Source: Nitrospirae bacterium MYbin3 (GTDB taxonomy: Bacteria; Nitrospirota; Thermodesulfovibrionia; Thermodesulfovibrionales; Dissulfurispiraceae). From it: a DNA stretch of 64,000 nt. Below the pieces are notes generated by a model. It saw only the letters and a program-made list of their open reading frames with translations. It was not told the origin of the DNA and ran no database searches. Made by a program: the position numbers and the translations under genes. Shown one piece after another: positions 12,942 through 56,919 of this stretch (its first letter is position 1; the number at the start of each line of letters is the position of its first letter). The stretch spans positions 139,245-203,244 of the forward strand of contig PEAD01000001.1 in assembly GCA_002753335.1 (NCBI GenBank), read 5' to 3'.

Positions 12942-12942
12942 G

Positions 12943-33120: not shown

Positions 33121-34248
33121 TTGGTCTTTTTGGTGGTTACAATCTACTTTCTCGGCAGACCTCTTACCCAAATCGTAGGATTAGAAAAAGAAATTCTTGA
33201 TAAATACGCACTGCTTAATATTCTTGACAAGACAAGAGAAAACAAAATCAAACATTTCTTTTCTTCTCAAAACAAGGTGCATGAACTGACAAAAGCCCAC
33301 CTTGATAACATCGTTTCTACGACGGACGATGCTGCAAACGGCATCATAAATCAGGCGCAGAGCGTGGATGAATCGATGACCAGCCTTATTACAAAGGTTA
33401 ATGGCCTTAAAAAGAGCAGTATCGAATTTGCAGAAGAAACCAAGGCTACCGTAATGGACAACGAAAAGACTATCGTGAGCCTTAGGCAGTATATAAACGA
33501 AAGGATGAGCGATCTTGATGATGACGCAAGAATGATAAAGACTCTTACAGAGGACGCCACCAATATGGCCAGACTGGTACAGCTTATGAAGGACATAAGT
33601 GACCAGACCAACCTGCTTGCTCTGAATGCGGCCATAGAAGCGGCAAGGGCGGGCGAACAAGGCAGGGGGTTTGCTGTCGTGGCATCGGAAGTCAGAAAAC
33701 TTTCTGTTCAATCTGAACATGCTGCGGGAGAAATAGGCAAGGCCATAACCAGCATGGCAAATAATATCAAGAACGAGCTGGGCAAAAAGATTTCTACTGC
33801 GAACACCGAAAAAGAAAAGGCTATTCTTCACCGTCTTGAGGGGCAGTTATCGGCGCTTGCGGACAGTTACCGGTGTTTGGACCATATGAACACCGAGATA
33901 CTTGAGCAGGTGGGCTCCAGTACTGGTGATGTTGCGAATGAGATTCTTCTAATGCTCGCAAACATTCAGTTTCAGGACATAACCCGCCAGCAGATAGAGC
34001 AGGTGGTTGCTGTTTTGCAGGAGATTGACCAGTATTCAGGCAGGCTTGTTGAGTGGATCGAAAAAGAGCATAACTGCGCCACTGATACATGCGAACTGCC
34101 TGACATGGATGTAGATGAGATACACAACAGGCATTACAAGATGGAAAAGCAGCGCACTATTCATAATGAAGTTATTAAATCCCAGAAAAAATCAGCAGGC
34201 AGTCAAACCAAAGCAAACAAAGATGAAGGCGCGCTCGAATTTTTTTAA
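33121..34248 (+). CDS. Methyl-accepting chemotaxis protein (short, membrane-anchored); 5' end apparently displaced by the upstream repeat tract
   Basis: MCP signalling hairpin motif [34 protein letters not shown]. The first canonical start in frame is TTG 33121. The same frame is open back to 32869 and encodes two hydrophobic helices, and TTG 33121 lies inside the second helix. Confidence 0.85.
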
Positions 34249-34266
34249 GATGCACGGAGGAATTGA

Positions 34267-34635
34267 ATGGGCAAAATGATAATGATAATTGACGATTCCG
34301 CATCAATAAGGTCGGTGGTCGGCATAACACTTAAAAAATCGGGCTATGATGTGCTTGAGGCCTCAGACGGCAAGGATGCGCTGGCCAAGCTTACCGGCCA
34401 GAAGGTAAACCTGATGGTCTGCGATGTGAACATGCCGAATATGGACGGCATATCTTTTTTAAAGGCGGTAAAGCAAAACCCCACCTACAAATTCACGCCT
34501 GTGATAATGCTTACGACCGAATCACAAGAATCTCTGAAGCAGGAAGGCAAAGCGGCCGGAGCAAAGGCATGGATGGTCAAGCCTTTTAAGCCGGATATGC
34601 TGCTGGATGCTGTTGTTCAACTGATTCTTCCTTAA
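34267..34635 (+). CDS. cheY: CheY-like single-domain response regulator
   Basis: 122-aa ORF with the receiver acidic pocket IIDDS, phospho-acceptor in MVCDVNMPNMDG, and the conserved T (LTTE) and K (KPF). Confidence 0.9.
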   Translation: MGKMIMIIDDSASIRSVVGITLKKSGYDVLEASDGKDALAKLTGQKVNLMVCDVNMPNMDGISFLKAVKQNPTYKFTPVIMLTTESQESLKQEGKAAGAKAWMVKPFKPDMLLDAVVQLILP

Positions 34636-34653
34636 TCTCAAGCCGGAGGATAT

Positions 34654-34947
34654 ATGAACTTTAATGCCGAAAAAAGTGAAGGCTTTTGCAAAATGACGAT
34701 AGAGGGTGAAATGAACATCTACCACGCGGCAGAACTGAAAAAAGCTATCTTCGAAAACTTTGCTGACAGCACCGCTATTGAACTGGACCTTTTGCAGGTA
34801 ACAGAGATGGACACCTCCGGTTTCCAGATTATATATCTTCTCAAGAGAGAGTCTGATGCCTCTAACAAACAGTTCAGGATAACGAAGCAGAGCGAAGCCG
34901 TAACTGCTGTAATAAATCTTTACAATCTGGCTTCTCATTTCAACTAA
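34654..34947 (+). CDS. STAS-domain protein (anti-sigma-factor antagonist-like)
   Basis: 97-aa ORF with a SpoIIAA/RsbV-like pattern, including the phosphorylatable-Ser region LLQVTEMDTSGFQIIYLL. Confidence 0.78.
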   Translation: MNFNAEKSEGFCKMTIEGEMNIYHAAELKKAIFENFADSTAIELDLLQVTEMDTSGFQIIYLLKRESDASNKQFRITKQSEAVTAVINLYNLASHFN

Positions 34948-34960
34948 CACAGGAGACCAA

Positions 34961-37120
34961 ATGGAAGAAGTCGATCTCATAAGACAAGTTTTTCTGACAG
35001 AAAGCGTTGAGCATCTTCAAAACATCGAGGACTGCCTGCTCGCTATGGAAACCAATCCTGACGACACAGACACTATAAATGCGCTGTTCAGGGCTGCACA
35101 CACCATCAAGGGCTCTTCCGGAATCGTGGGACTCGAAATCGTCGAAAAGTTCACACATAATGTCGAAAGCCTGCTCGATAAAGTAAGAAGGGGCGAACTC
35201 AGGATAAACGCCGATATTACCGAGGTTCTGCTTAAATGCCGTGACCATATAGCCTCTCTTATAGAGATCGAGACGGACGGCAGGCTCCTTGAGGGCGAGC
35301 TGAAGGCAACCGGGGAAGCATTGAAGAGCGAACTTCTGAAGCTGCTTGGCGCAAAACAGGAAGAGGATAAAAAAATCGAAGCGTCTGCGGTTGTGGAAGC
35401 TGCCCCCTCATATAATGCCTCAGAAACCTCGAACTGGCACCTGTCTTTGAGGTTTTCGCAAAACGTGCTTCAGGACGGCATGGACCCTATATCTTTCATA
35501 AATTACCTTTCGCGTATCGGCGAGATCGTATATCTGGCTACTTTGACAGACACTATGCCATCGCTTGAGGAGATGAATCCAGAAAACTGCTATTTGGGCT
35601 TTGAGCTTGAGTTCAAGACCGATTTTGACAAAAAGACGATAGACGATGTTTTTGAGTTTGTTCGCGAAGACAGTCAGATAAGGATTCTTCCTCCGCACAG
35701 TTCTGTTTCATCCTATGTTGAATTAATCAGAAGCCTTCCTGAAGACCCGCTTAGGTTGGGCGAATTGCTTGTTAAGGGCGGCGCACTTACCCAGTCCGAA
35801 CTTGACGCGGCCCTGCAGGAGCAGGATGAGTCTAAAGGCCGGCTCGGAGAAATCCTTGTAAAAGACAGCGTTGTTCATCCCGAGGTTGTTGAAGCAGCGG
35901 TTGAAAAGCAGAAGCGGGCGCGTGAGGTGAAGTCTCTGGAGAGCCAGACCATAAGAGTGGATATAAACAAACTTGATCAGCTTGTGAATATGGTGGGAGA
36001 GCTTGTGATAACAGGGGCCAACATCAACCAGCAGGCGCAGAGGCTTCAGGACGGCAGTCTGCTGGAATCGGCCTCGGCCATGTCCCGTCTTGTGGAAGCA
36101 ATACGGGAGAGGTCGATGCAGGTGCGCATGGTACCTATCAATGAGGTATTTACCCGCTTCAACAGGGTGGTGCGCGACATCTGCCACGACAGCGGCAAAG
36201 AGATCGAGCTTGTGATAAACGGCGGAGACACCGAAGTGGACAAGACGGTTGTAGAGAAGATAAGCGATCCGCTTATGCATCTGGTGCGCAATGCGGCTGA
36301 CCACGGCCTTGAAATGCCGGAGGCAAGAGCCGCAAAAGGCAAGCGGGCAAAGGGTGTTTTAAAGTTAAACGCCTTTCATGACGCAGGCTGCATAGTTATC
36401 GAGGTTGTGGATGACGGCGCCGGGCTGAACAAAGAAAAAATAATCAAGAAAGCTCTCGAAAGGGGCATGCTTAACCAGTCACAGATACAGACAATGACCG
36501 ACGGCGAGATATACAGGCTTATATTCGAAGCCGGTCTTTCGACCGCAGAACAGATTACCAAACTGTCAGGCAGAGGCGTGGGCATGGATGTTGTGCGGAA
36601 AAATATCGAGGCTTTGAGAGGCACTGTAGAGGTTTCGAGTCAGGAAAATCAGGGCACGACCGTAAGCATAAGACTGCCTCTCACCCTTGCTATCATCGAC
36701 GGCTTTCTTGTCGGCATCGGCGATTCTTCTTTCGTTATACCTCTTGATATGGTTGTGGAGTGCGTTGAACTTTCAGAGGCCTACCGCGAATCAAAGGACA
36801 GACGCAGCTACATAAATCTGCGCGGTGAGGTGCTGCCGTACCTTAGATTGAAAGACCTTTTTGAGGAATCTTCAGAGGTGAGCAAGTACGAAAATATAGT
36901 GGTGGTTAAATATCTAGGTTTTAAAGTCGGCCTTGTGGTTGACAACCTGTTCGGAGAGGTTCAGGCGGTTATCAAGTCTCTCGGAAGACTTTATAAAGAC
37001 ATAGAGGGAGTCTCGGGCGCAACGATACTGGGCGACGGAACAGTAGCACTGATTCTGGATATACCGAGGCTTGTGAGCATTGCAGAGAAAATGGAACATC
37101 TTGTAACAGATTCTCAATAA
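34961..37120 (+). CDS. cheA: Chemotaxis histidine kinase CheA
   Basis: 719-aa ORF. Hpt domain with AAHTIKGSSG. HATPase boxes HLVRNAADHGLE, DDGAGL and GRGVGMDVV. C-terminal CheW-like domain. Confidence 0.95.
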   Translation: MEEVDLIRQVFLTESVEHLQNIEDCLLAMETNPDDTDTINALFRAAHTIKGSSGIVGLEIVEKFTHNVESLLDKVRRGELRINADITEVLLKCRDHIASLIEIETDGRLLEGELKATGEALKSELLKLLGAKQEEDKKIEASAVVEAAPSYNASETSNWHLSLRFSQNVLQDGMDPISFINYLSRIGEIVYLATLTDTMPSLEEMNPENCYLGFELEFKTDFDKKTIDDVFEFVREDSQIRILPPHSSVSSYVELIRSLPEDPLRLGELLVKGGALTQSELDAALQEQDESKGRLGEILVKDSVVHPEVVEAAVEKQKRAREVKSLESQTIRVDINKLDQLVNMVGELVITGANINQQAQRLQDGSLLESASAMSRLVEAIRERSMQVRMVPINEVFTRFNRVVRDICHDSGKEIELVINGGDTEVDKTVVEKISDPLMHLVRNAADHGLEMPEARAAKGKRAKGVLKLNAFHDAGCIVIEVVDDGAGLNKEKIIKKALERGMLNQSQIQTMTDGEIYRLIFEAGLSTAEQITKLSGRGVGMDVVRKNIEALRGTVEVSSQENQGTTVSIRLPLTLAIIDGFLVGIGDSSFVIPLDMVVECVELSEAYRESKDRRSYINLRGEVLPYLRLKDLFEESSEVSKYENIVVVKYLGFKVGLVVDNLFGEVQAVIKSLGRLYKDIEGVSGATILGDGTVALILDIPRLVSIAEKMEHLVTDSQ

Positions 37121-37214
37121 AAAATACCAGAAAGGAGGGTTTTGCTCAGGCAGGTTAATAGCATACGGGTAATCGGGAGAGAAATTAATCTTAACAAACA
37201 AGAGGAGGAACAAC

Positions 37215-38903
37215 ATGCAGTGGTACCTGAATCTTAAAATAGGCGTGAAGTTATTGTCAGGTTTTATGCTTGTGGCTTTAATAGCGGGCATTATCGGTTT
37301 TGTGGGCATAAAAGGCATAAAGGATATAGATGAGGCTGATACTCTTATGTATGAAAAGGTTGTAGTTCCGCTTAATGATGCGGGCGATTTATCCATAGCA
37401 TTTCAGCGCATGCGGGTGAATCTGAGAGATTTGATAACGGCCACTAAGGATGAGGATATCCAGAGATTTGCCAACAGAATAAAAGAGCTTAGAGAAATTA
37501 TTGATAAAAATGCGGCTGCTGTTGAGAAGAGCATGGTAACGGAAGAAGGTAAAAAACTCTATGCCACTTTTGCTGAAACAAGAAAAGTATATGGCCCACT
37601 TGTTGATAAGATGGTAGTGCTGGCAAAAGAAAACAAGGATGCAGAGGCTCTTGCCTTAATGCAAGGAGAGGGGGGAAAGGCTTCTCGGGCTGAGCAGGAG
37701 GCTATAGAAAAAATGCTGGATGCCAAAGTTGCGCTTGGAAAGAAGACCGCTGCAGACAATACGGCGCTTGCAAATAATGCAACCAGAATTATGATTGGAT
37801 TAGTAATAGGCGGAGTAGTTATCTCTATAATCCTTGGCATATTCATATCGCGCATAATCAGCAGGGCTTTGAGCGAGGGTGTAACAGTCGCCAACACTCT
37901 TGCTGATGGGGATTTGAGAATAAACATTGATGTTAAGAGCAAAGATGAAACGGGACAACTCCTTGAAGCGCTTAGAAATATGTTAGCTAAGTTGAAGAGC
38001 ATAGTTGGAGAAGTAAAGACGGCGGCCGACAATGTGGCGTCGGGCTCGCAGGAATTAAGTTCAGGCGCACAGCAGATATCTCAGGGCGCAACAGAGCAGG
38101 CAGCATCTGTTGAAGAGACCTCATCCGCAATGGAGGAGATGACCTCAAACATCAAACAGAATTCTGACAATGCGCAGCAGACAGAGAAGATTGCGCAGAA
38201 ATCGGCGGTTGATGCGCGTGAAGGCGGCAAAGCGGTTGCTGAAACCGTAACCGCAATGAAAGAAATAGCGAGCAAGATATCGATAATAGAAGAGATAGCC
38301 AGACAAACCAACCTGCTTGCGCTGAATGCGGCGATAGAGGCGGCAAGGGCAGGAGAGCATGGCAAGGGCTTTGCTGTGGTTGCATCTGAGGTCAGAAAGC
38401 TAGCTGAAAGAAGCCAGACCGCAGCAGGCGAGATAAGCCATCTGTCATCATCTAGCGTGCAGATAGCGGAGAAAGCCGGAGAGATGCTGACCAAGATAGT
38501 GCCGGACATCCAGCGGACGGCAGAACTGGTGCAGGAGATAAGCGCATCCAGCAAAGAGCAGGACACAGGGGCGGAGCAGATAAACCAGTCTATACAGCAA
38601 CTGGATCAGGTAATACAGCAGAATGCCGGGGCAGCAGAAGAGTTGGCCTCCACATCAGAGGAGCTTTCATCTCAGGCCGAACAGCTTCAAAGCACAATAT
38701 CGTTTTTCAAAACTGACGATACCGGAACCGCAGCAAGAAGGGTTGTTGCAAAGAAACCAGCACACAAGATTCAGGTGGCCCACACAGCCAAAAAGATCGA
38801 AGGGCCTAAAGCGGCTAAAGCCATTACAGGCAGAGGCGTAGCTCTTGATATGAATGAGGGGGCAAAGGCCGGAGACGACGACAAGGAATTTGAGAAATAC
38901 TAA
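37215..38903 (+). CDS. Methyl-accepting chemotaxis protein (four-helix-bundle sensor, HAMP, signalling domain)
   Basis: 562-aa ORF with two TM helices flanking a periplasmic region of about 170 aa, a HAMP segment and the signalling hairpin [38 protein letters not shown]. Confidence 0.92.
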
Positions 38904-38963
38904 AGTCGGCTGGATAAAGGCCAGATAAACCTTAAACTTTACAGATAAGAAAGGAGTTTATTT

Positions 38964-39470
38964 ATGAGCGTAGCCGGCGTAACAGAAACAACGCAATACC
39001 TCACCTTCAAATTAGATGATGAAGTATTCGCGCTTGATATAGCAAAGGTAAGAGAGGTATTGGATTTTACCACAGTAACAAAGGTGCCGAGGACGCCCGA
39101 TTTTATGAGAGGCGTGATAAATCTGCGGGGCAGTGTGGTGCCTGTAGTTGACATGAAGCTGAAGTTTGGCATGTCAACAACCCAAAAGACGGTCAACACC
39201 TGCATAATCATCGTTGAGGTGGTGGTGGAAGGGGAATCAGCCATTCTTGGCGCCCTTGCCGATTCAGTGCAGGAGGTTATAGACCTTGAGCCGAACCAGA
39301 TAGAGCCTTCACCCAAGATAGGCACAAGGCTGAAGACCGAATTCATCAAGGGCATGGGCAAGAGGGACAATAACTTTATCATCATCTTGGACATAAACAA
39401 GGTCTTTTCTGCTGACGAGCTTTCGCTTGTTCAGGGAGCTAATGGCCTGCCTGCAGCCTCTGACCAGTAA
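38964..39470 (+). CDS. cheW: CheW coupling protein
   Basis: 168-aa ORF with the typical CheW pattern QYLTFKLDDEVFALDIAKVREV...VINLRGSVVPVVD. Confidence 0.9.
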   Translation: MSVAGVTETTQYLTFKLDDEVFALDIAKVREVLDFTTVTKVPRTPDFMRGVINLRGSVVPVVDMKLKFGMSTTQKTVNTCIIIVEVVVEGESAILGALADSVQEVIDLEPNQIEPSPKIGTRLKTEFIKGMGKRDNNFIIILDINKVFSADELSLVQGANGLPAASDQ

Positions 39471-39543
39471 CAATCATTTATTAAGGCATAGGCGGCATTA
39501 CGCTGCCTATGCCTTAAATCTTAAAGAACACAGAAGGGCTTAG

Positions 39544-40395
39544 ATGGATTATGTAGGCACAATGAAGCTCAAGGATTTTGAGCGGCTCAGCCGCTTCATA
39601 GAGACGGAGCTCGGCATAAAAATGCCGACGACCAAAAAGACTATGATCGAATCACGCCTGCAAAAAAGGCTCCGTATTCTCGGGCTGAAATCTTTTGATG
39701 AATACTGTGAATATCTATTCAGCGGCGACGGCATGGAAGAGGAGCTGGTGCATATGATAGACATGGTTACCACAAACAAAACCGATTTCTTCCGCGAGTC
39801 GTCACATTTTGATTATCTTGTGCAGAAGGTGCTTCCGGAGATGATAAAAGAGTCTGGATCGGGAGTAATGAATACCTTTATGGCGTGGAGCGCCGGCTGT
39901 TCAACAGGCGAGGAGCCTTACACGCTTGCTATGGTTTTAAGTGAGTTCGGCCTTAGATATCCCGGTCTTTCTTTTCAATACATGATCCTTGCGACCGACA
40001 TTTCAACGAGGGTGCTTCAGGCCGCAAGCAAAGCTACATACGCTGAAGACCGTATCAGTCCTATTTCTCTAGAGCTCAGGAAAAAGTATTTGCTAAGGAG
40101 CAGGGACAGGGAGCAGGGTCTTGTGAGGTTCGTTCCTGAGCTTAGGTCCCATGTAAGGTTTCGCAGGCTGAATTTTCTTGAAGGAGACTTCGGAATGCGC
40201 GAGCAGTTTGATGTGATTTTCTGCAGAAATGTTTTCATTTATTTCGACAAGCAGACTCAGGAGGACATTATGAGCAAGTTCTGCAGGCATCTTAAACCCG
40301 GAGGATATATATTCATAGGCCAGTCCGAAAGCTTCACAGGAACGGATCTTCCTCTCAAAAGGGTCAATCCCTCTGTATATAAAAAGGTGGCATGA
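39544..40395 (+). CDS. cheR: CheR chemotaxis protein methyltransferase
   Basis: 283-aa ORF with the SAM-binding region [14 protein letters not shown] and [10 protein letters not shown] motifs. Confidence 0.92.
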
Positions 40396-41455
40396 AAAAA
40401 ATAAGGGTTTTGATAGTTGACGATTCGGCTGTTGTAAGACAGACCCTTACCAACATTATTACATCCGACCCGGAACTCGAAATCATGGCGACCGCGGCAG
40501 ACCCTTTTATAGCGGCCGAACGGATTGCTGAAGAGGTTCCTGATGTTATAACTCTTGATGTGGAAATGCCGAGAATGGACGGCATCACCTTTTTAACCAA
40601 GATAATGAGCCAGCATCCTATTCCGATAGTAATCGTCTCAAGTCTTGCTGACGAGGGATCCGAGACGGCGATGAAGGCGTTGGAAAACGGGGCTGTGGAT
40701 ATAATCACAAAACCGAAGATGGGCACAAAGCAGTTCCTTGAGGAATCCAGAACCTTGGTCTGCGATACCATCAAAGCAGCGGCCGCGACAAAGGCCAAGA
40801 TAAAAGTTGTCAGGCCACGCAGTTCTCTGGTAGCGCCTAAACTAACAGCGGATGCTGTTCTTGCCAAGCCTACAAAGGCAATGGCACAGACAACAGAAAA
40901 AGTTATCGCGGTGGGAGCCTCCACCGGAGGTACAGAGGCGCTCAGGGAATTCCTCGAGTCCTTGCCGCTTGATTCTCCCGGTATTGTAATAGTTCAGCAC
41001 ATGCCCGAAAACTTTACGGCCGCTTTCGCAAAACGTCTTGACGGCATTTGCAGGATATCGGTTAAAGAGGCCGAAAATAACGACACTGTTATCAGGGGTA
41101 GGGCATTGATAGCACCCGGCAACAAGCACATGCTCTTAAAAAGAAGCGGTGCGAGATATTATGTCGAGGTCAAAGACGGACCTCTGGTTTCGCGTCACAG
41201 ACCTTCTGTGGATGTCCTGTTTCGTTCAGCAGCGCAGTACGGCGGCAAAAATGTTATGGGCGTAATCATGACAGGCATGGGTGATGACGGGCGCGGGGTA
41301 TGAAGGAAATGAAAGACGCCGGAGCTTTCAATATTGCACAGGACGAAGAATCCTGTGTTGTTTTCGGCATGCCTAAAAAGGCGATAGAACACGGCGCAGT
41401 TGACGAGATAGTCCCTCTGAAAAACATATCAAAAGTCATATTCGAAAATCTCTGA
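40392..41455 (+). pseudogene. cheB: CheB methylesterase/response regulator interrupted by a -1 nt frameshift
   Basis: The frame from 40392 (REC: [16 protein letters not shown]; esterase: GASTGG, VQHMP, GMGDDG) stops at TGA 41301-41303. The conserved C-terminus ([30 protein letters not shown]...) continues in another frame, open from 41288 to TGA 41453-41455. One missing base in the G-run at about 41289-41291 would restore a normal CheB. Confidence 0.8.
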
Positions 41456-41484
41456 GCATCTGTTTCTAAGTAAAAACTGGAGGA

Positions 41485-42381
41485 ATGATGTCAAAACTTA
41501 CAGACAGCGAACTGATAGCAGAGCTTAAAAACCGGTTTGAGGAACAGGGCAGGGCCCTTCATGACTTGATGGTTATGACCCGAAAACTGGAGGATGTAAA
41601 CAGCAAGCTTCAGGAGTCGGAGACTATGAAAAGCCACTTTATATCAAACATCAAAAACGAAATAAATAATCCGTTGTCAGTAATTTTGGCGATGTCCGAA
41701 ACCATGTCAGGATTACAGTCCTACGCGGTTGAAGAGATCGCTTCAATGGGAGAGTTGATCTTCACCGAAGCCTTTACACTCGATTTTCAGCTCAAAAACA
41801 TTTTTGCGGCGGCAGAGATAGAGGCTGGAGAGGCCTCTCCTTACATTTCGAATGTGGACATAGACAGCCTTTTGCGAGGATTGGTGGATGTTTATAAAAA
41901 GAGGACGTTGTCTAAAAAACTGACAATAAGTTTTGAATGGATAGGCGATGTGGTTAAAAACAGTTTTAAGACCGATTCAGAAAAGCTGGAACTAATCCTT
42001 TCAAACCTTATTTCGAACGCCATAGAATACACCTCCGAAGGCGGCAAGGTGGCGGTAAAAGCATGGCGGCATGACAATAGTCTGAACATCATAGTTGAGG
42101 ACACAGGCATAGGTATAGGCGAGGATGACAAGCAGGTTATCTTTGAACGCTTCAAGCAGCTTGAGGAAGGCGTACGTAAAAGGCACAAAGGCCACGGCTT
42201 GGGACTAAGCGTGACCAAAGCACTTGTGGAGTTGCTTGGAGGAACTATTTCTGTGGTCAGCATTAAAGACAGAGGCAGCATATTCACAGTATTTATTCCC
42301 GAGATTTCGGGGAAAGAGGGGATTGATGTTTTTTCTGATGACGGTAATGAATTTTTCTTTGAGGAGGAAACTAAATTTTAG
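41485..42381 (+). CDS. Histidine-kinase-like ATPase (DHp-like + HATPase_c) lacking the canonical H-box histidine
   Basis: 298-aa soluble ORF. The H-box position reads FISNIKNEINNPL (Asn where SHELRTPL has His). N box LISNAIEYT, G1 EDTGIGI and G2 GHGLGLS are intact. Confidence 0.8.
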   Translation: MMSKLTDSELIAELKNRFEEQGRALHDLMVMTRKLEDVNSKLQESETMKSHFISNIKNEINNPLSVILAMSETMSGLQSYAVEEIASMGELIFTEAFTLDFQLKNIFAAAEIEAGEASPYISNVDIDSLLRGLVDVYKKRTLSKKLTISFEWIGDVVKNSFKTDSEKLELILSNLISNAIEYTSEGGKVAVKAWRHDNSLNIIVEDTGIGIGEDDKQVIFERFKQLEEGVRKRHKGHGLGLSVTKALVELLGGTISVVSIKDRGSIFTVFIPEISGKEGIDVFSDDGNEFFFEEETKF

Positions 42382-42875
42382 TGCAGACCGCCACAGATAT
42401 AGAGGTAAATGAGCATTACCTTTATCCCGGACAGCTTTTTGCAGCCCCCGCCCCTTACGTAATTACTACGATACTTGGCTCCTGCGTTTCTGTCTGTTTA
42501 TGGGACCCGGTTTTAAGAATAGGCGGAATGAACCATTACCTTTTGCCTTTCTGGAACGGAGATGGTCTGCCTTCGCCCAAATACGGAAATATCGCTATCC
42601 CCAAGCTTATAGAAAAAATGCTTTCTATCGGCTCCCAAAGATCAAACCTTAAGGCAAAGGTGTTCGGAGGCGGGGCTGTGCTTGAGACATCAGGAGGTCT
42701 TCTTAATGTTGGAGAACGAAATATCATGTTATATAAAGATCTGCTTGAAAACGAAAAGATGCCGGTCTTATGCTCAGACACCGGAGGCACGCAGGGAAGA
42801 AAGGTGATCTTTCACAGCGACACCGGCGAAGTGTTTGTTAAGAAGATACAAAAGGCAATTAGACCTATTGGATAA
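42381..42875 (+). CDS. cheD: CheD chemoreceptor glutamine deamidase
   Basis: 164-aa ORF with a GTG start overlapping the preceding stop. Catalytic-Cys region TILGSCVSVCLWD and GGMNHYLLP motif. Confidence 0.9.
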   Translation: MQTATDIEVNEHYLYPGQLFAAPAPYVITTILGSCVSVCLWDPVLRIGGMNHYLLPFWNGDGLPSPKYGNIAIPKLIEKMLSIGSQRSNLKAKVFGGGAVLETSGGLLNVGERNIMLYKDLLENEKMPVLCSDTGGTQGRKVIFHSDTGEVFVKKIQKAIRPIG

Positions 42876-48712: not shown

Positions 48713-48739
48713 TTAGCACTCTCTGTCAGAGAGTGCTAA
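48713..48739 (+). promoter_or_regulatory. CIRCE operator (HrcA binding site)
   Basis: TTAGCACTC-N9-GAGTGCTAA is a perfect match to the CIRCE consensus, located between the promoter and the htpG RBS (AGGAGG 48753-48758). Confidence 0.88.
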
Positions 48740-48762
48740 AAGATAAAAAATTAGGAGGAACA

Positions 48763-50667
48763 ATGACCATAGAAAAACATGAATTTAAAACAGAGGTAAA
48801 ACAACTACTTGATTTGATGATACATTCGCTTTACTCTCACAAAGAGGTTTTCCTTCGTGAATTAATCTCAAACGCATCCGATGCAATAGACAAAATCCGT
48901 TATGAATCCCTGACAAACAAGGATATTGCTGAAGGGGACACTAATTGGAAAATAAAGATAAGTACAGACAAGGATAAAGGCACGATTACCATAAGCGACA
49001 ACGGCATCGGCATGACCAAAGATGAGGCTGTACAAGCGCTGGGAACCATAGCGCATTCAGGCACAAAAGAGTTTCTGAAACTTCTGCAGAGTAAAGAAGT
49101 TAAGGACAATCCGGAATTGATAGGCCAGTTTGGGGTCGGTTTTTATTCCTCTTTCATGATAGCCGACAGCATAACGGTAATTTCGAGAAAAGCTGGGTCT
49201 CAGCAAAATGCGGCGGTAAAATGGGTATCTGCAGCGGACGGGGCATATACGGTTGAATACACAGAGAAGACTTCAAGGGGAACGGATGTTATTCTGCATC
49301 TTAAGGAGGAAGAAAAGAAATATCTCGAATCTTGGGAAATAAGGGGCATAGTTAAAAAATATTCGGATTTTATCGAGCATCCGGTTGTGATCGAAGTAGA
49401 AAAAGAAAAGGACAGCGAAATATCAAAGGGCAGCAAAGTTAAAGTTACAGAGGAAGAGACGCTCAACTCGATGAAGGCGATCTGGCTGAAGGACAAATCC
49501 GAAGTGACCAACGAAGAATACAATGAATTTTACAAGCATGTGTCTCATGATTTTGCTGAACCCTTGAGAGTTATTCACTATAAAGCCGAAGGCACTTCGG
49601 AGTTCAATTCCCTGCTTTACATTCCGTCAAAGGCTCAGTTCAATCTCTTTTATAAGGACTTTAAAATCGGTCCGACCCTTTATGTCAAGAGGGTCCAGAT
49701 TATGGAGCACTGCGAGGATCTGATTCCTCAGTACCTTAGGTTTGTGCGTGGCGTTGTTGATTCTTCGGACCTGCCGCTGAATGTTTCGAGAGAGATTTTG
49801 CAGAACAACAGGCAGGTTGAAACTATCAAAAAGAGCATTACCAAAAAAGTGCTGGATACGCTCGACGAGATGAAAAAACATGATTATGACAAATACCTTA
49901 AATTCTATGCCGAGTTCGGAAGGCTGCTTAAAGAAGGGATTCATTTCGATTTCTCGAGAAAGGAGACTATTGCTGACCTGCTTTTGTTCAAGTCAACAAA
50001 AACAGAAATAAATGAGTTTACAACACTTCAAAAGTATGTTGATGGTATGAGGGAAGGACAGGAAGACATATATTACATTATCGCAGAAAACATGGAATCT
50101 GCCTTGAAGTCACCATATCTTGAGACATTTAAAGAAAAAGATTACGAAGTTCTGATAATGATGGATGAGGTTGACGAGATAGTGATGAGCAGCCTTGAAT
50201 ACAAAGGCAAACGGTTGAAATCAGCGATAAGGGGCGATATAAAGCTCGACAAGGCAGAGGCAAAAGAGGCTGACAAGGCGGGCAAGAAATACAAAAAACT
50301 GATAGACCTGATAAAGGACAAGCTTAAAGATAATGTGAAGGATGTGCGGCTGTCCGGCCGTTTGAAGGATTCTGCCTGCTGTCTTGTGGCTGATGAGGGA
50401 GACATGGATCCGCAGATGGAGCGCATAATGAAGGCTATGGGGCAGGATATTCCGCAGACAAAAAGAATACTTGAAATAAACCCAGTGCATCCGCTTTTTG
50501 AGGCTATGAACCGTATATTTGAGAAGGATAAAGAAAGCGGGCTTTTAAGTGAATATGTTGAGCTGCTTTATGATCAGGCTATTATAATAGAGGGTGGCAA
50601 ACCCAAAGACCCTGCAGCTTTTGCAAAGACTATTACAAGGCTTATGGTAGAGCGCGCAGGAAGCTGA
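48763..50667 (+). CDS. htpG: Molecular chaperone HtpG (Hsp90)
   Basis: The ORF opens at 48733, with ATG 48763 preferred (RBS AGGAGG 5 nt upstream). Hsp90 N-terminal signature FLRELISNASDAIDKIRY and GQFGVGFYS. Confidence 0.95.
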   Translation: MTIEKHEFKTEVKQLLDLMIHSLYSHKEVFLRELISNASDAIDKIRYESLTNKDIAEGDTNWKIKISTDKDKGTITISDNGIGMTKDEAVQALGTIAHSGTKEFLKLLQSKEVKDNPELIGQFGVGFYSSFMIADSITVISRKAGSQQNAAVKWVSAADGAYTVEYTEKTSRGTDVILHLKEEEKKYLESWEIRGIVKKYSDFIEHPVVIEVEKEKDSEISKGSKVKVTEEETLNSMKAIWLKDKSEVTNEEYNEFYKHVSHDFAEPLRVIHYKAEGTSEFNSLLYIPSKAQFNLFYKDFKIGPTLYVKRVQIMEHCEDLIPQYLRFVRGVVDSSDLPLNVSREILQNNRQVETIKKSITKKVLDTLDEMKKHDYDKYLKFYAEFGRLLKEGIHFDFSRKETIADLLLFKSTKTEINEFTTLQKYVDGMREGQEDIYYIIAENMESALKSPYLETFKEKDYEVLIMMDEVDEIVMSSLEYKGKRLKSAIRGDIKLDKAEAKEADKAGKKYKKLIDLIKDKLKDNVKDVRLSGRLKDSACCLVADEGDMDPQMERIMKAMGQDIPQTKRILEINPVHPLFEAMNRIFEKDKESGLLSEYVELLYDQAIIIEGGKPKDPAAFAKTITRLMVERAGS

Positions 50668-50735
50668 TTTTTGCAATAGAGCCCGCTAAATGATATTATG
50701 TATGACGCTGTTTGAAACAAAAAGAGGGGTGTTCT

Positions 50736-53177
50736 GTGCAAAAAAACATAAAGATTTTTCAGGAATCGATCATAGAACACCTGACTTACGATCTTGCCAA
50801 AGATAAATATTCCGCAACAACCAGAGACAAATATACCGCCCTGTCTCTCTCTGCCAGAGAGCAGCTGGTCAAACGCTGGATAAAAACCCAGCAGCAGTAT
50901 TACGAGGTCAAAGCAAAAAGAATCTACTACCTGTCTCTTGAATTTCTTCTGGGCAGGCTTCTCAGAAACTACATTCTCAATCAAGGCCTGACGGATGAGT
51001 ACAGCAAAGCGCTTAACGCTCTCGGCGTTACTTATGAGGAGATTGCTGAGCAGGAATGGGACGCAGGGCTCGGAAACGGAGGCCTAGGAAGGCTTGCGGC
51101 CTGTTTTCTTGACTCTCTTGCTACACTTGAATATCCGGGCTACGGCTACGGCATACGTTATGAGTTTGGGATTTTCTCACAAAAAATAATTGATGGATAT
51201 CAGGTCGAATCACCGGACAACTGGCTTCGCTACGGCAATCCATGGGAATTCCCTCGTCCGGAGCTTATATATCCAGTCCGGTTTTACGGCAGAACCAATA
51301 CGGTTTCAGCTCCGGGCGGGCGTTACAAGATGCAATGGATTGACTACGATGAGGTTATGGCGATGGCCTATGACTATCCTGTGCCCGGATATAAAAACGA
51401 AACCGTTAATACGCTCCGTTTGTGGGCAGCAAAATCGACCAGAGAATTCAACCTTGACTACTTTAACAGCGGTGATTATGTTAAGGCTGTCGAAAGCAAA
51501 AGCAACAGCGAGAGCATTTCGAAGGTGCTTTATCCCAACGACCATTCGTTGGCGGGCAAGGAGCTGCGGCTTAAGCAGCAGTATTTTTTTGTGAGCGCTA
51601 CGATTAGAGACATTATCAGGCGATATAAAAAATTTCATAAAAGCTATCGTGAATTTCCGAGCGAAGTGGCCATCCAGCTGAACGACACGCATCCCTCAAT
51701 AGCCATCGCCGAACTTATGCATATACTTGTTGATGAGGAGGGCATCGCATGGGATGATGCTTGGGGCATAACAAATAAAACCTTCGGCTATACCAATCAT
51801 ACTGTTCTGCCGGAGGCCCTCGAAACCTGGTCCGAAGGGCTGTTCGCGTATCTGTTGCCTAGGCACCTTCAAATAATACAGGAGATTAACCGGCGCTTTC
51901 TGATTCAGGTGGATGAGCGCTTCCCGGGTGATTGGGGCAGGCGGGACGGGCTTGCTATCATTACCAGCAACGGTGAAAATATGATAAATATGGCACGACT
52001 GGCCATTGTAGGAAGCCATGCTGTCAACGGGGTTTCGGAGCTGCACAGTACGATACTGAAAGAAAGCGTGTTTAACAGCTTTTACTTGATGACGCCCGAA
52101 AAATTCACAAATGTTACCAACGGCATAGCACCGAGAAGATGGCTTATGCATGCTAACCCCAAACTTTCTGCACTAATAACTGATGCAATAGGCGAGGGAT
52201 GGAAAAAGAACCTTGAGGAGCTGCGCCTGCTTGAGTCATACGCGGATGACAAGGATTTTTGCAAACGCTTCGGCAAAATAAAGCGCGAAAACAAAGACAC
52301 TCTCAACAACTATCTCAAACTGCACTGCGAGGCATCTCTTAATCCGGAATTCATGCTTGATTGTCAGGCCAAGAGATTTCATGAATACAAGCGACAGCTT
52401 TTGAATATCCTGCATGTAATAACCCTTTACAACAGACTGCGTGAAGGCAGGGAAGGCAGTTCATTCACACCAAGAACTGTACTTTTTGCCGGCAAATCAG
52501 CGCCCGGATATTATGTGAGCAAATTGATAATTAAACTGATACACAATATCTCTGCAGCAATTGCGGATGATCCAATGGTCAATAAACGGCTCGAAGTGGT
52601 CTTTGTGCCTAACTACGGGGTAACTCTTGCGCAGCGCATCATGCCGGCTGCAGAGCTTTCGGAGCAGATATCTACTGCCGGGTACGAGGCATCAGGAACC
52701 GGAAACATGAAGTTCACCCTGAACGGTGCTCTGACTATAGGAACTCTTGATGGAGCGAATGTCGAGATACGCGAAGAGGTGGGCGAAGAAAACTTTTTCC
52801 TCTTCGGGCTTAAGGCAGAAGAGATAATGCAGATGTCGTCAAGCTATAATGCTCGCTGGTATTATGAGCAAAATAGTGAATTGCGTCAGGCTATAGATCA
52901 AATTGCGAGCGGGTACTTTTCGCCCGAGAATTCAAAACTCTTTAACCCCCTCATCGACACGCTGCTTGGCTACGATAGATTCTTTGTTCTGGCCGATTTC
53001 GCGCTGTATATTGCCTGCCAGGAAAAGGTTTCAGAAACCTACAAGAATGAGGATGAATGGAATAGGATGGCTGTTTTGAATGTCGCACGCTCCGGCAAGT
53101 TCTCGAGTGACAGGGCGATTCGGGAGTATGCCGAAAATATCTGGAATATATCGGCTGTTCATTCTTCTACAGCATAA
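50736..53177 (+). CDS. glgP: Glycogen/maltodextrin phosphorylase
   Basis: The frame opens at 50712, with GTG 50736 preferred (AGAGGGG upstream). PLP-lysine signature EASGTGNMKFTLNGALTIGTLDGANVE. Confidence 0.93.
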   Translation: MQKNIKIFQESIIEHLTYDLAKDKYSATTRDKYTALSLSAREQLVKRWIKTQQQYYEVKAKRIYYLSLEFLLGRLLRNYILNQGLTDEYSKALNALGVTYEEIAEQEWDAGLGNGGLGRLAACFLDSLATLEYPGYGYGIRYEFGIFSQKIIDGYQVESPDNWLRYGNPWEFPRPELIYPVRFYGRTNTVSAPGGRYKMQWIDYDEVMAMAYDYPVPGYKNETVNTLRLWAAKSTREFNLDYFNSGDYVKAVESKSNSESISKVLYPNDHSLAGKELRLKQQYFFVSATIRDIIRRYKKFHKSYREFPSEVAIQLNDTHPSIAIAELMHILVDEEGIAWDDAWGITNKTFGYTNHTVLPEALETWSEGLFAYLLPRHLQIIQEINRRFLIQVDERFPGDWGRRDGLAIITSNGENMINMARLAIVGSHAVNGVSELHSTILKESVFNSFYLMTPEKFTNVTNGIAPRRWLMHANPKLSALITDAIGEGWKKNLEELRLLESYADDKDFCKRFGKIKRENKDTLNNYLKLHCEASLNPEFMLDCQAKRFHEYKRQLLNILHVITLYNRLREGREGSSFTPRTVLFAGKSAPGYYVSKLIIKLIHNISAAIADDPMVNKRLEVVFVPNYGVTLAQRIMPAAELSEQISTAGYEASGTGNMKFTLNGALTIGTLDGANVEIREEVGEENFFLFGLKAEEIMQMSSSYNARWYYEQNSELRQAIDQIASGYFSPENSKLFNPLIDTLLGYDRFFVLADFALYIACQEKVSETYKNEDEWNRMAVLNVARSGKFSSDRAIREYAENIWNISAVHSSTA

Positions 53178-53189
53178 AGATTGCTCGCG

Positions 53190-55235
53190 ATGAAAAAAAA
53201 CAAAAATAAGAGCGCCGACTCCATTTCAGTTGAAAGGCGTTCATTTTTCGAAAATGTAGTGAGTTTTCTAAAGCCTGCAGGGAGTTACAATCTAATAATT
53301 TTTATTGTTGCGGTAGCGATATGCGTCTCAGTATCGGCCGGTGTCAGGTTTAAACAGTATTCTGTATGGACAGAAAATCCTGCTACGCATTTTGTCGGAA
53401 ATATTCCTATGATGACCACACTGGACTCTTACCACTGGTTCAAACATGCAAAGGATTATAAAGCCGGAGTTGCGGTTGAGGGCAAGACCGTTCCTATGCT
53501 CGGCTATATGCTTGCGAAGCTCTCTGCATTTTTTGACAATAATGTCTATAAGGCAGGCATTTATCTTATACCCGTTCTCGCAAGTCTTTTTATAATTCCG
53601 TTATGTCTTTATTTTTACCGGTTAGGCTTTCCTGCCGCCGGAATATTGGGTGGTCTTGTGGGCACATTCAGCTATATGTATCTTGCCCGCTCCTGTATCG
53701 GCAGGGTTGACACCGATGCGCTTAACCTGTTTTTCCCCTTTTTATCTTCATATTTTATTTTAGTAGCCGGAGATAAAAAAGATTTAAAAAGTATAAGCCT
53801 TTATTCTGGGCTTGCCGGATTCTCGATGCTCTTGTTTTATTGGTGGTATGAGCATCCGGGGTTCACAGTTATTTATATGGCTGTTCTTATCGCGTATCTT
53901 TTTTTAAACAGGATTGGGTGGAAAACAGTTGCCTACGCTTCAGGATTCTATATACTTTGTTCCAATCCGCTTTTGTTCTGGGAAGGCATTCAAGGCGTCA
54001 AAAGTTTTTTTTCCAGTTATTTTGCCATTACCGAATCAAAAGTTGTGGCCAACGCCATAGCTTTTCCTAATGTGCTCGATACCATTACCGAAACACAAAA
54101 GGTTTCTATAAACGCTGTTCTTTCAGGAATTCTCAGCGAGCCGGTACTTGCCGGAGCAGGCCTGTTTTTGTTCGTTTTGTGCGGTCTTTTAAACTGGAAG
54201 AAAATAGTTCCCATAATTCCTGTGTTTGTTTTAGGGTTGTGGGCGTTTAGAAGCTCCAACAGATTTGCTATGTTTTTGGGGCCTTTTGTCGGCGCAGGAT
54301 TAGGCTTTTTGCTTAATATAATTGTTGTCCATTGTATTGATTGGATAAAACAAAAAAAAGGGCAGAATAGTATAAAAGACGTTGTTGTTTATGCCATGTC
54401 TTTTGTCATGTTTTTCGTATTTTCATCCCAGACCGGAATTTCTTTTGTTCCATTCCCTTCGATTCCTGTCGGCATTTATGGCACCTTTATAGATTTTAAA
54501 AAGGTCTCGCCCGACAATTCGTCAATTTTTACATGGTGGGATTTCGGCCATGCCTTAAAAGATGCCGGATTTGCTGTGTATCACGATGGTGCATCTCACG
54601 GTCAGCTGCAAACCTATTTTGTTGGTAGAGGATTAGTTTCTGATAGCCAAAAAGAATTAGGAAATATTATTAGGTGCTACAATAGCGAGTGTGTACATGC
54701 TCTTGAAACCGCCGACAGAATAACTCCCAAAGAAATGATAGAAAAAGCTACCACTTATAACGGTCCGATAAAGACCGAAAATGTATATGCCCTTTTTACT
54801 TATGATATGATCGCCAAATACGGCGCGATAAGTTTTTTCGGTTTGTGGGACTTTGACAAAAAATCTGGAGGAAATCTTTTTTTTGAAGAGCTTAGATGCA
54901 CAGGCATACGGGATAACATCCTTGATTGCGGCGATGTAAAAGCAGACCTTACCTCTGGGTTAATCAATAAATCAACACCGTTAAAGAAGGCTGTTTTCTC
55001 TAATAACGGAAGTGTAGTGCAGGAGCTATCTTATCATCACGACAGAGGCTTGTACCTTGAACTTATTTTTGATGCAAAAAGTAATATAGTAGGTGTTTTT
55101 ATTTTAGAAGAAAAAACATTTTATTCGAACTTTAATCAGATGTATCTGCTTGGCAGGTATGACAAGAATCTGTTTGAAGAGGCTTACAATGCTTTTCCCT
55201 ATGCCAGATATTTCAAGGTTAAATTTTCAAGATAA
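53190..55235 (+). CDS. STT3/PglB/AglB-family oligosaccharyltransferase homologue
   Basis: The frame opens at TTG 53181, with ATG at 53190. About 13 TM helices plus a C-terminal soluble domain. Family motifs seen: LDSYH (53421-53435), DTD (53709-53717), TITE (54081-54092) and WWDFG (54534-54548, compare WWDYG). Confidence 0.75.
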   Translation: MKKNKNKSADSISVERRSFFENVVSFLKPAGSYNLIIFIVAVAICVSVSAGVRFKQYSVWTENPATHFVGNIPMMTTLDSYHWFKHAKDYKAGVAVEGKTVPMLGYMLAKLSAFFDNNVYKAGIYLIPVLASLFIIPLCLYFYRLGFPAAGILGGLVGTFSYMYLARSCIGRVDTDALNLFFPFLSSYFILVAGDKKDLKSISLYSGLAGFSMLLFYWWYEHPGFTVIYMAVLIAYLFLNRIGWKTVAYASGFYILCSNPLLFWEGIQGVKSFFSSYFAITESKVVANAIAFPNVLDTITETQKVSINAVLSGILSEPVLAGAGLFLFVLCGLLNWKKIVPIIPVFVLGLWAFRSSNRFAMFLGPFVGAGLGFLLNIIVVHCIDWIKQKKGQNSIKDVVVYAMSFVMFFVFSSQTGISFVPFPSIPVGIYGTFIDFKKVSPDNSSIFTWWDFGHALKDAGFAVYHDGASHGQLQTYFVGRGLVSDSQKELGNIIRCYNSECVHALETADRITPKEMIEKATTYNGPIKTENVYALFTYDMIAKYGAISFFGLWDFDKKSGGNLFFEELRCTGIRDNILDCGDVKADLTSGLINKSTPLKKAVFSNNGSVVQELSYHHDRGLYLELIFDAKSNIVGVFILEEKTFYSNFNQMYLLGRYDKNLFEEAYNAFPYARYFKVKFSR

Positions 55236-55293: not shown

Positions 55294-56919
55294 CTAAACC
55301 TTAAACCCTGCCACAATCTTTTGAAGGTCGGATGCCAGTCTTGCCAGATCCGAGGAAGACTGTGCTATCTGATTTGAGCCCGCAGAAGTCTCATTCGAAA
55401 CGCTAGCTATAGTTTCAATATCATGGCTGATAGTTTCTGATACGGTTGACATCTCTTCTGTTGCGGATGCTATCTGGTGTATCATCGTCTTAAGCCCTTC
55501 GATGCTTGCAACTATTGTATGCAAAGCTTCTCCTGCTTTGGACGCCTCATCAACACCGGCCATTACTTTATCCGATGCCTGTTCCATAGAGCCGAGTGCC
55601 TGCTCAACCTCTGTCTGGATCGCGCCTATCATGTTGCTTATTTCTGAAGTGGCCTTAGCGGTTCTTTCGGCCAACTTTCTAACTTCATCCGCCACAACCG
55701 CAAACCCGCGGCCCTGCTCTCCTGCTCTTGCAGCTTCTATCGCGGCGTTCAAGGCAAGAAGATTTGTCTGGTCAGCAATATCTTTGATTACGCCCACAAT
55801 CTCGCCAATCTGCTTGGAGCGGTCTCCCAAAGAAACCATCACTGCCGATAAATCCGAAACTGTCTTTGCTATATCCTGAACCTCGGTAATCGTCTTGTTC
55901 ACAACCACTTCACCGTTGTGGGCCGAATCAAGTGTATCGTTCGCTGACCCCGAAATTTCTGAGGCATTCTTTGCGATGTCTATAACGGTCTGCGACATTT
56001 CCTCGGACGATGTGGCTATCTGGGAGGCCCTGCCCGACTGTTCTGTAACACCTCTGGACATCTGCTCGGAGCTGGAACTGAGCTGCTCGCTTGCTGATGC
56101 AACGCTGTTTGCGGAGGTCTTGATGGTGCCTATCATCTGTTTTAAATTGTCAACCATGCTTTTTAGGGCTGACATGAGTTGGCCTACCTCATCGGTGCTT
56201 TTTGCTTCAACATTCACGGTCATGTCTTTTTGGGCTATGCGCTCCATAGCGCTGACGCCTTCATGCAGCGGTTTTGTGATGCTGCCTATTATCCACCAAG
56301 CAAAAGCAAAAGAAAAGACCACTCCTAAAGCAATTGCTGCTATCGAGATATTTCGGGCCAATTTATAAACGCGGGTATCTTCTTCAAACTCTCTTTTTGC
56401 CTCATCAATTATAAACTTCATCAGGTTGTCTGTAGCCTCTGTTACCTTTTGGTAGTGAGGGCTTATGAATTCATTGTTCAGCTTTCTTGCCTCATCAAAC
56501 TTGCCTTCACGGAATAAAGCCATTATCGGGATGAGTCCCTTGTCTCGCAGTTCTTTTCTGACCTCCGCAAATTTTTCGGCGAGCTTTTTTTCTTCAGGAA
56601 CCAACGGTATCGACATATATGCCTGCCATTCTTTATTGATGTTTTCGATGTTCTGCTCCATGGCAGGAATTCTTTTTTTAACCTCTTCAGCGGTCGGATT
56701 TAAAAGCATTTGCGATATCTCAATGCGGTTGCGCAGGTTCCACCTGATTATGCGGTCAAACTGGCTTAAAGGAATTACACTCTGCTCATACAAACTCTGC
56801 AGTCCATGGTTTGCCTTGGATGCGGCATTTAGCCCCAGTCCCCCGACAATAAACAACAGCAAGGCGCTAAAGGCCACAAGCGCATAAAGCCTCGCCCCGA
56901 TTTTCATGTTTTTAAACAT
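55294..56919 (-). CDS. Methyl-accepting chemotaxis protein
   Basis: 541-aa ORF with two TM helices around a helical periplasmic sensor, a HAMP segment and the signalling hairpin [38 protein letters not shown]. Confidence 0.92.

Follow-up and report, generated by a model that had tools for sequence, protein, structure and literature searches.

A PglB/STT3-family oligosaccharyltransferase gene outside any pgl-like locus in a Nitrospirota genome

The oligosaccharyltransferase gene and its product

A 64,000-nucleotide stretch of the genome of Nitrospirae bacterium MYbin3 (Nitrospirota, Dissulfurispiraceae; assembly GCA_002753335.1, contig PEAD01000001.1, positions 139,245 to 203,244), hereafter the window, was found to encode a single-subunit oligosaccharyltransferase (OST) of the PglB/STT3 family between a glycogen phosphorylase gene, glgP, and a chemoreceptor gene (Table 1). 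An initial annotation of this DNA, made from its letters and open reading frames (ORFs), had proposed a homologue of PglB and STT3 with a 682-residue product; translation of the frame instead gives 681 residues and a stop codon. An alternative in-frame TTG start at 53181 would extend the product by three residues to 684 aa, whilst the opposite strand carries stops throughout and the ATG lacks an obvious Shine-Dalgarno sequence upstream. The proposed architecture of about 13 transmembrane helices and a C-terminal soluble domain is supported by an AlphaFold2 (AF2) model, in which 13-14 membrane-length helices precede residue 415 and residues 427-681 form a mixed alpha/beta domain, and by a full-length Foldseek alignment to PglB. 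The helix count is that of the AF2 model, as a simple hydropathy scan, which gave fewer transmembrane peaks, was not used for topology.

Family and fold

The product matched the Pfam STT3 profile (PF02516) over residues 81-410 with 36.7 bits, above the gathering score of 24.5. A second profile, that of the STT3/PglB core domain (PF21436), was matched marginally under its cut-off (21.1 against 23 bits), and the fold of residues 427-681 matches the C-terminal domain of Campylobacter jejuni PglB (3aag). The only solved relatives that phmmer retrieved from the PDB by sequence were Campylobacter lari PglB (3RCE, 5OGL and 6GXC; E ~1e-13) and that same C. jejuni domain. The AF2 model, for which 48 homologues served as input, had a mean predicted local distance difference test (pLDDT) score of 90.2 and a predicted template-modelling score (pTM) of 0.86. 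When compared with the PDB by Foldseek, it returned PglB structures at the top, with template-modelling (TM) scores of 0.73-0.76 (0.74-0.76 for C. lari PglB, where 6gxc gave 0.76 and 5ogl 0.74) and E-values of 1e-24 to 1e-26, ahead of eukaryotic STT3 and archaeal AglB (~0.55) and of the other GT-C glycosyltransferase families represented by DPY19 (0.43), AftA (0.36) and ArnT (0.34).

The gene could alternatively encode an enzyme of another GT-C family, such as ArnT or PMT, acting on lipid A, other lipids or Ser/Thr residues. An acidic residue in external loop 1 (EL1) and a polytopic N-terminal domain are common to all GT-C enzymes, and three lipopolysaccharide (LPS)-core genes of glycosyltransferase family 9 (GT9) are present in the window. 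However, the low TM scores of ArnT, AftA and DPY19 relative to that of PglB, the presence of WWDxG and TIxE motifs and of a PglB-type C-terminal domain, and the lack of any PMT or ArnT family match in a Pfam scan at E-values up to 1 together render this scarcely credible. The initial annotation had named a closer likeness to such a family, with motifs falling outside the catalytic positions, as grounds for abandoning its proposal; what was found is a remote likeness to ArnT and motifs that align with catalytic positions. Since profile and fold comparisons both place the protein in the STT3/PglB family and not in another GT-C family, and the catalytic and sequon-binding residues are conserved, its assignment to that family is established. 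It is not an orthologue of the Campylobacter-type PglB, given that it scored 77.7 bits against the NCBIfam PglB equivalog model NF050801, for which the cut-off is 1300.

Catalytic and substrate-binding residues

Four motifs had been recognised in the initial annotation, and these occur in the order described: LDSYH (residues 78-82), GRVDTDALN (171-179), TITE (298-301) and WWDFG (449-453). They are not chance matches, because a HMMER alignment places them on functional residues of C. lari PglB, an alignment which also recovers the literature numbering of R147, R331, R375, H485 and I572. Conservation was counted over 48 members of the clade to which the window OST belongs, and is given in Table 1. 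Upstream of the DxD motif, R167 corresponds to C. lari R147 and is likewise present in 48/48 members; H470 aligns with H485, and R358 with R375, the pyrophosphate-binding arginine. The variable position of WWDxG is Tyr in 28 of the 48 members and Phe in 14, the window OST having Phe. Further along, M540-x-x-K543-x-x-x-I547 fills the position of the DK/MI motif that contacts the +2 Ser/Thr of the sequon, and this MxxK is, as read from the alignment, a hybrid form that joins the Met of bacterial MxxI to the Lys of archaeal and eukaryotic DxxK.

Table 1. Features of the OST gene, its product and its immediate neighbours, in window coordinates; conservation is given as members of the clade
Feature	Position	Strand	Evidence or remark
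htpG	48733-50667	+	Upstream of glgP
glgP, GT35 glycogen phosphorylase	50712..53177	+	Pfam Phosphorylase, 1081 bits
PglB/STT3-family single-subunit OST gene, 681 aa	53190..55235	+	ORF, Pfam, phmmer against PDB, AF2, Foldseek
Membrane (GT-C) domain, residues 1-420; 13-14 membrane-length helices, loops EL1 and EL5	53190..54449	+	DSSP of AF2 model; Pfam STT3 at residues 81-410
D79, EL1 catalytic Asp (C. lari D56)	53424..53426	+	HMMER alignment; 48/48
D174-T175-D176, DxD metal/acceptor-binding motif (C. lari D154/D156)	53709..53717	+	HMMER alignment; D176 48/48, D174 42/48
T298-I299-T300-E301, EL5 TIxE motif; E301 (C. lari E319)	54081..54092	+	HMMER alignment; E301 48/48
R358 (C. lari R375)	54261..54263	+	HMMER alignment; 48/48
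Periplasmic C-terminal domain, PglB type, residues 427-681	54468..55232	+	Foldseek and phmmer matches to C. jejuni PglB C-terminal domain 3aag
W449-W450-D451-F452-G453, WWDxG sequon +2 Ser/Thr-binding motif; WWD (C. lari W463-W464-D465), motif (463-467)	54534..54548	+	HMMER alignment; WWD 48/48
M540-I-A-K543, MxxK; M540 (C. lari M569), K543 (C. lari I572)	54807..54818	+	HMMER alignment; M 46/48, K 47/48
Methyl-accepting chemotaxis protein (MCP), convergent with the OST gene; 3' boundary of the unit	55294..56919	-	Pfam MCPsignal, TarH, HAMP

The product is likely to be an active inner-membrane N-oligosaccharyltransferase of the single-subunit PglB type, its activity, donor, sequon and targets being inferred. 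If it works as C. lari PglB does, D79 in EL1, D174/D176 and E301 in EL5 would bind a divalent metal and activate the amide of the acceptor Asn, R358 would hold the pyrophosphate of an undecaprenyl-pyrophosphate (Und-PP)-linked glycan, and W449-W450-D451 together with K543 would bind Ser/Thr at position +2 in the N-X-S/T sequon of a periplasmic or surface protein. The Und-PP-linked glycans would be supplied from elsewhere in the genome, for which an LPS-type locus on contig C50 is the best candidate.

Phylogeny, distribution and selection

When 1.84 billion representatives were searched exhaustively with HMMER, 231 clusters, each a 50%-identity representative, were retrieved at E <= 1e-30, a number that rose to 730 at E <= 1e-10. 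The closest relatives, of 80% and 71% identity, originate from metagenome-assembled genomes (MAGs) of Nitrospirae and are intact; the catalytic residues are all retained in the window OST, in these two proteins and in relatives of lower identity. Homologues of 35-46% identity were found in the Deferribacterota (Deferribacter, Calditerrivibrio, Geovibrio and Flexistipes), Desulfurellales/Hippea, SAR324, 'Deltaproteobacteria' MAGs, magnetotactic Nitrospirota, Aquificota, Thermodesulfobacteriota, Methylomirabilis and Omnitrophota. Loci of Desulfovibrio and Desulfobaculum encode OSTs only 21-24% identical to those of the clade and fall in a different one. The window OST belongs to a separate clade, distinct from the PglBs of Campylobacter and Desulfovibrio.

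A maximum-likelihood tree, obtained by a short search and rooted on a long-branched paralogue, such that its deep order is tentative, clustered the proteins by phylum label (11 changes, against 40 in shuffles). In this tree the window OST groups with two metagenome-contig proteins (P0004 and P0007) and a protein from a Thermodesulfovibrionales MAG (P0027), and this group neighbours one of Magnetobacteria and SAR324 with a Shimodaira-Hasegawa-like approximate likelihood-ratio (SH-aLRT) support of 87. Within the Nitrospirota the gene occurs in 3/121 sampled genomes and 2/53 genera, and it was absent from the sampled genomes of other genera in the family of the source organism.

The OST gene has evolved faster than the genes beside it. 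Over window positions 48733-55235, compared with the locus of the 71%-identity relative (L004:5571-12055), HtpG and GlgP are 90% identical, against 71% for the OST; nonsynonymous divergence (dN) is 0.19 for the OST and 0.05-0.06 for htpG and glgP, at a synonymous divergence (dS) for these neighbours of 1.1-1.6, so that the OST protein has changed at 3-4 times the rate of its neighbours in the operon. The dS of the OST gene itself is saturated under the NG86 method, and omega, computed with the dS of the neighbours, is ~0.12-0.17. The gene is under purifying selection.

Patchiness within the Nitrospirota, faster evolution than the neighbouring genes and the want of an obvious Shine-Dalgarno sequence would each be compatible with a gene that was acquired horizontally and has since lost its function or begun to decay. 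The intact 681-codon frame, the retention of catalytic residues in relatives, the low omega and the confidently predicted fold argue against decay, and we regard it as very improbable; a functional N-oligosaccharyltransferase remains our preferred reading.

Gene neighbourhood

The neighbours named in the initial annotation, glgP on one side and a chemoreceptor on the other, were recovered by Pfam searches. The glgP stop codon lies 12 nt ahead of the OST ATG, in a gap devoid of a terminator or promoter-like site, and the two genes are probably co-transcribed. Beyond the chemoreceptor are a gene for a GGDEF protein and then ileS, lspA and trpE, whilst upstream the window holds corrin methylase genes and a chemotaxis cluster (33121-42875; two MCPs, CheA, CheW, CheR, CheB, a histidine kinase and CheD). 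A single tRNA (31772-31858) was the sole Rfam match in the window, and two of its long ORFs, of 520 aa (21984-23546, +) and 575 aa (12883-14610, +), matched no Pfam family at E <= 1e-5.

The glycosyltransferases of the window are confined to three GT9 heptosyltransferase-like LPS-core genes situated 22-41 kb upstream of the OST gene. One of these (28710-30272, +) encodes a GT9 heptosyltransferase domain fused to a C-terminal phosphatase of the haloacid dehalogenase type, perhaps GmhB-like; the others are at 30259-31287, adjoining it, and at 11712-12941, and all three have the look of LPS inner-core genes. No match of the genome to Bac_transf, the GT4-family (WecA/MraY), GT1, Wzx or Wzy_C fell inside the 64-kb window. 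The observation that no glycan-assembly gene adjoins the OST gene therefore holds: lipid-linked-glycan assembly genes are not found near it in the window, and it does not lie in a pgl locus.

Neighbouring genes were clustered across 82 loci of the clade. The OST gene was situated amid unrelated housekeeping genes in 70 of these, with a glycan-type gene within three genes of it in the other 12, and the clustering revealed no shared target or donor gene. Recurring neighbours were lineage-specific housekeeping genes, including leuS, argB, cupin, PilZ, electron transfer flavoprotein (ETF), rpsB-tsf-pyrH, pepA and lysR. The gene had been described as standing alone, which is accurate for the window locus, but this is the norm in the clade rather than an oddity, and the genome has a second OST. 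Because the window OST comes without dedicated glycan genes, it most probably uses Und-PP-linked glycans made at other loci of the genome.

The proximity of glgP could point to a different role, in which the enzyme mainly hydrolyses lipid-linked oligosaccharides to free periplasmic oligosaccharides, with protein glycosylation a minor activity and the pairing with glgP serving carbohydrate or osmotic homeostasis. C. jejuni PglB releases free oligosaccharides as a secondary reaction, and besides the 12-nt gap without a terminator, the two genes are also paired in the 71%-identity relative and a distant GT35 gene lies 1.4 kb upstream of the OST gene in one Magnetobacterium. Phosphorylase adjacency is, however, absent from the other 79 loci examined, glgP itself being kept beside the OST gene solely in the 71%-identity relative (L004), and GlgP is a cytoplasmic enzyme that acts on alpha-glucan and has no known link to Und-PP glycans. 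Moreover, WWD and K543 are as strictly conserved as the catalytic residues, a constraint that hydrolysis alone would not impose and that favours protein N-glycosylation over mere hydrolysis of the lipid-linked donor. We consider a mainly hydrolytic enzyme improbable. A functional link between OST and glgP was likewise dropped, their adjacency, confined to one close relative and a single distant GT35 case, being probably incidental.

Candidate glycan donor

The genome (2.93 Mb, 93.7% complete) encodes four Bac_transf phosphoglycosyltransferases (PGTs), two GT4-family (WecA/MraY) proteins, 20 GT1, five Wzx and three Wzy_C proteins, distributed over several loci. Guidance as to which of these might serve the window OST came from the few clade members with glycan genes nearby. 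In six loci the OST gene adjoins a PglC-sized PGT and/or a PglF-type membrane dehydratase, and three of these, in Calditerrivibrio and two Deferribacterales MAGs, are tight PGT-OST-OST-PglF operons. The operons (L017:938-7385, L022:7362-13816 and L036:4460-8719) resemble a compact pgl-like core, and their tandem OST paralogues have diverged. A Desulfurobacteriaceae MAG has a PGT-PglF-x-OST arrangement, and in P0004, the nearest relative from outside the genus (46% identity), the OST gene has lipid A genes on one side and, on the other, convergent PglF-like and PglD-like genes.

On contig C50, an LPS-type locus at 57-66 kb encodes, in order, a GT2, a GT1, a short-chain dehydrogenase/reductase (SDR) epimerase/reductase, a 187-aa PGT and a 638-aa PglF/WbpM-type dehydratase, with a GT9 and a WaaL-type ligase on the other strand. 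Its PGT is 36-39% identical to the OST-flanking PGTs of the clade and its dehydratase 37-48% identical to the flanking PglF-like proteins, and because of this resemblance to the partners of clade OSTs, the C50 glycan is the best donor candidate. The candidate donor would accordingly be an Und-PP-linked glycan with a 6-deoxy-N-acetylhexosamine (6-deoxy-HexNAc)-type, 2-acetamido reducing end; a 2-acetamido reducing end is, as far as is known, required by characterised PglBs. At the head of the locus is a 582-aa ORF (L007:983-2731, +) without a Pfam match at E <= 1e-5.

Two other sugar loci were noted. A complete-looking legionaminic-acid-type cluster (G000:C50:13000-23000, corresponding to L094:4075-13966), with LegB/C/H/I/G-like and PtmE-like genes, encodes a 4,6-dehydratase, a DegT aminotransferase, a PglD-like acetyltransferase, NeuB, a methyltransferase, a hydrolysing 2-epimerase, a PIG-L deacetylase, a CBS-nucleotidyltransferase, a GFO oxidoreductase and a second DegT protein, and suggests glycosylation of flagellin or of the cell surface. 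A DegT-family aminotransferase match amid sugar-modification genes on contig C21 (G000:C21:165266-166282, -) has one in-frame TAG in its 399-aa frame, and may be a pseudogene or reflect a sequencing error.

A second oligosaccharyltransferase in a pilin locus

Contig C48 of the same genome encodes a second PglB-type OST (L003:9187-11166; 659 aa), a paralogue with 28% identity to the window OST that carries WWDWG and TINE motifs and likewise has PglB as its best match. In its locus (G000:C48, L003:7959-13632), a tandem pair of type IV pilin genes (7959-8300 and 8422-8757) lies directly upstream of the OST gene, beside a divergent PilS/PilR pair, and downstream are a GT2 gene of polyprenyl-phosphate-glycosyltransferase-like (AglJ/PpgS-like) type (11163-11909) and then a gene for a tetratricopeptide repeat (TPR) protein. 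The family of this paralogue is seemingly restricted to Nitrospirota MAGs, in three more of which the order PilR-PilS, pilin-pilin-OST-glycan gene recurs with OSTs 41-48% identical to it (L089:1376-11974, L090:1212-11974 and L091:1-8566). The genes that follow those OSTs encode an epimerase, a B12-radical S-adenosylmethionine (SAM) protein and two GT2 proteins, or a GT1, a GT2 and methyltransferases.

The C48 pilins carry NYT, NDS and NGT sites. Each of the two has three N-X-S/T sites, against ~1.6 in composition-matched shuffles (P ~0.2-0.26), which is not significant, and across nine pilins there were 20 such sites against 15.5 expected (P = 0.10), with no sequon position conserved. The association of the paralogue with pilins is thus one of synteny.

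A second PglB-type OST beside pilin genes raises the question of whether the window OST is itself dedicated to one or a few targets, be it a single abundant surface protein or, redundantly with the paralogue, pilins. The tandem OST pairs in Deferribacterales operons suggest that paralogues can specialise, and the accelerated evolution of the window OST relative to HtpG and GlgP is usual for enzymes that co-evolve with surface targets. Yet no candidate target gene is conserved beside the OST gene in any lineage, the neighbours being housekeeping genes, and the characterised single-subunit PglBs act on many proteins; a dedicated window OST therefore appears unlikely to us.

A tentative extension of the preferred reading, in which the window OST is an active N-oligosaccharyltransferase, is that the genome runs two PglB-type N-glycosylation systems with divided labour. 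The window OST would then be a general short-sequon enzyme that borrows Und-PP-linked O-antigen-type units from the LPS pathway, and the C48 paralogue, in its conserved pilin locus, would be an N-glycosyltransferase dedicated to type IV pilins. We rate this division as less likely than not.

Relationship to characterised enzymes and predicted sequon

The window OST shares with the PglBs of C. lari and C. jejuni (3RCE, 5OGL, 6GXC; 3AAG) its single-subunit form, its overall fold, the residues equivalent to D56, D154/D156, E319, R147 and R375, the WWD motif and the type of periplasmic domain, including a C-terminal 'NQMYLLGxYD..LFE' segment. It differs from them in an identity of merely 18-19%, in the location of its gene outside a pgl locus, and in having WWDFG for WWDYG, Gly for R331, MxxK for MxxI, DGAS-H for DGGK-H and His for Y468. 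With archaeal AglB and eukaryotic STT3 it shares the GT-C/STT3 fold (TM ~0.55), WWDxG and a Lys at the K543 position (DxxK). Its similarity to these is far below that to PglB, its periplasmic domain is of the PglB type, and its donor is expected to be Und-PP-linked, not dolichol-linked as for AglB and STT3.

The PglBs of Desulfovibrio are also single-subunit bacterial OSTs very distant from that of Campylobacter. Those of D. gigas, D. alaskensis/desulfuricans and D. marinus have relaxed specificity at the -2 position and glycosylate minimal N-X-T sites (PMC4894442, PMC12229607). Their motifs are WWDWG, DGGR, NL and, in EL5, an SVIE-like form (PMC12229607); the window OST has WWDFG, DGAS, MxxK and TITE instead.

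Most of the PglB homologues described come from epsilonproteobacteria, and a smaller number from deltaproteobacteria and from Aquificae, which formed part of the Ollis 2015 panel (PMC4894442). The PglB of Deferribacter desulfuricans has been reported active, complementing its C. jejuni counterpart in E. coli (Mills et al. 2016, Glycobiology 26:398; cited in PMC6025236). The view that bacterial OSTs occur in epsilonproteobacteria and a few Desulfovibrio-type organisms, as expressed in the initial annotation, consequently holds for those lineages but falls short of the full range on record. OSTs of the phylum of Deferribacter desulfuricans (from D. abyssi, D. thermophilus, Calditerrivibrio, Geovibrio and Flexistipes) belong to the clade of the window OST, with 37-43% identity. 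No paper pairing PglB or STT3 with Nitrospirae was found in the literature searched.

Several observations weigh against an active N-oligosaccharyltransferase of the kind proposed. Function is not transferable by orthology, judging from the NF050801 score. In the vicinity of the donor site, the Lys of DGGK is replaced by Ser in the window OST and C. lari Y468 by a His (H454). The rarity of the gene in its phylum and its absence from the other sampled genera of its family indicate that it is dispensable. Deferribacter desulfuricans was absent from the retrieved clade and from the Desulfovibrio-type loci, leaving the clade membership of the enzyme tested in E. coli unconfirmed. The candidate donor locus on C50 resembles an ordinary O-antigen/LPS locus with a WaaL-type ligase of its own, and a bacillosamine donor (PglF/E/D) was rejected as unsupported, the genome's single PglD_N gene being situated in the legionaminic-acid cluster. 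Lastly, C. lari R331 aligns with Gly313 of the window OST, a correspondence that comes from sequence alignment in a variable loop and not from coordinate superposition.

In C. lari PglB, R331 is the partner of the Asp/Glu that occupies -2 in the extended bacterial sequon. Residues 305-321 of the window OST include no basic residue, and its residues 312-313 are S-G where the SAR324 subclade has RR (C. jejuni R327/R328). The R331-equivalent position is variable across the clade, with 'RR' solely in a SAR324/'Deltaproteobacteria' subclade, so the clade may mix long-sequon and short-sequon enzymes. The window OST probably recognises the short N-X-S/T sequon and not D/E-X-N-X-S/T, because Gly313 replaces the -2-reading Arg and Lys replaces the Ile of MxxI, and because the relaxed Desulfovibrio PglBs are analogous.

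Significance

The window OST extends the range of credible N-oligosaccharyltransferases to the Nitrospirota. It does not overturn current understanding; rather, it fills in a known picture and is a largely expected find. The clade to which it belongs is widespread, little studied and usually unlinked to glycan genes, a minority of its members lying beside PglC or PglF homologues. The pilin-linked paralogue is the more novel lead of the two enzymes. If it does glycosylate pilins, it would be a bacterial counterpart of the AglB-dependent glycosylation of archaeal pilins and archaellins; to our knowledge, bacterial pilin glycosylation known so far is O-linked. Since the clade mixes bacterial with archaeal and eukaryotic motif variants (MxxK, and no -2-reading Arg), its members may prove useful as short-sequon OSTs for glycoengineering. 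The finding also prompts a testable hypothesis, namely that certain bacteria use glycans common to LPS synthesis for the N-glycosylation of proteins.

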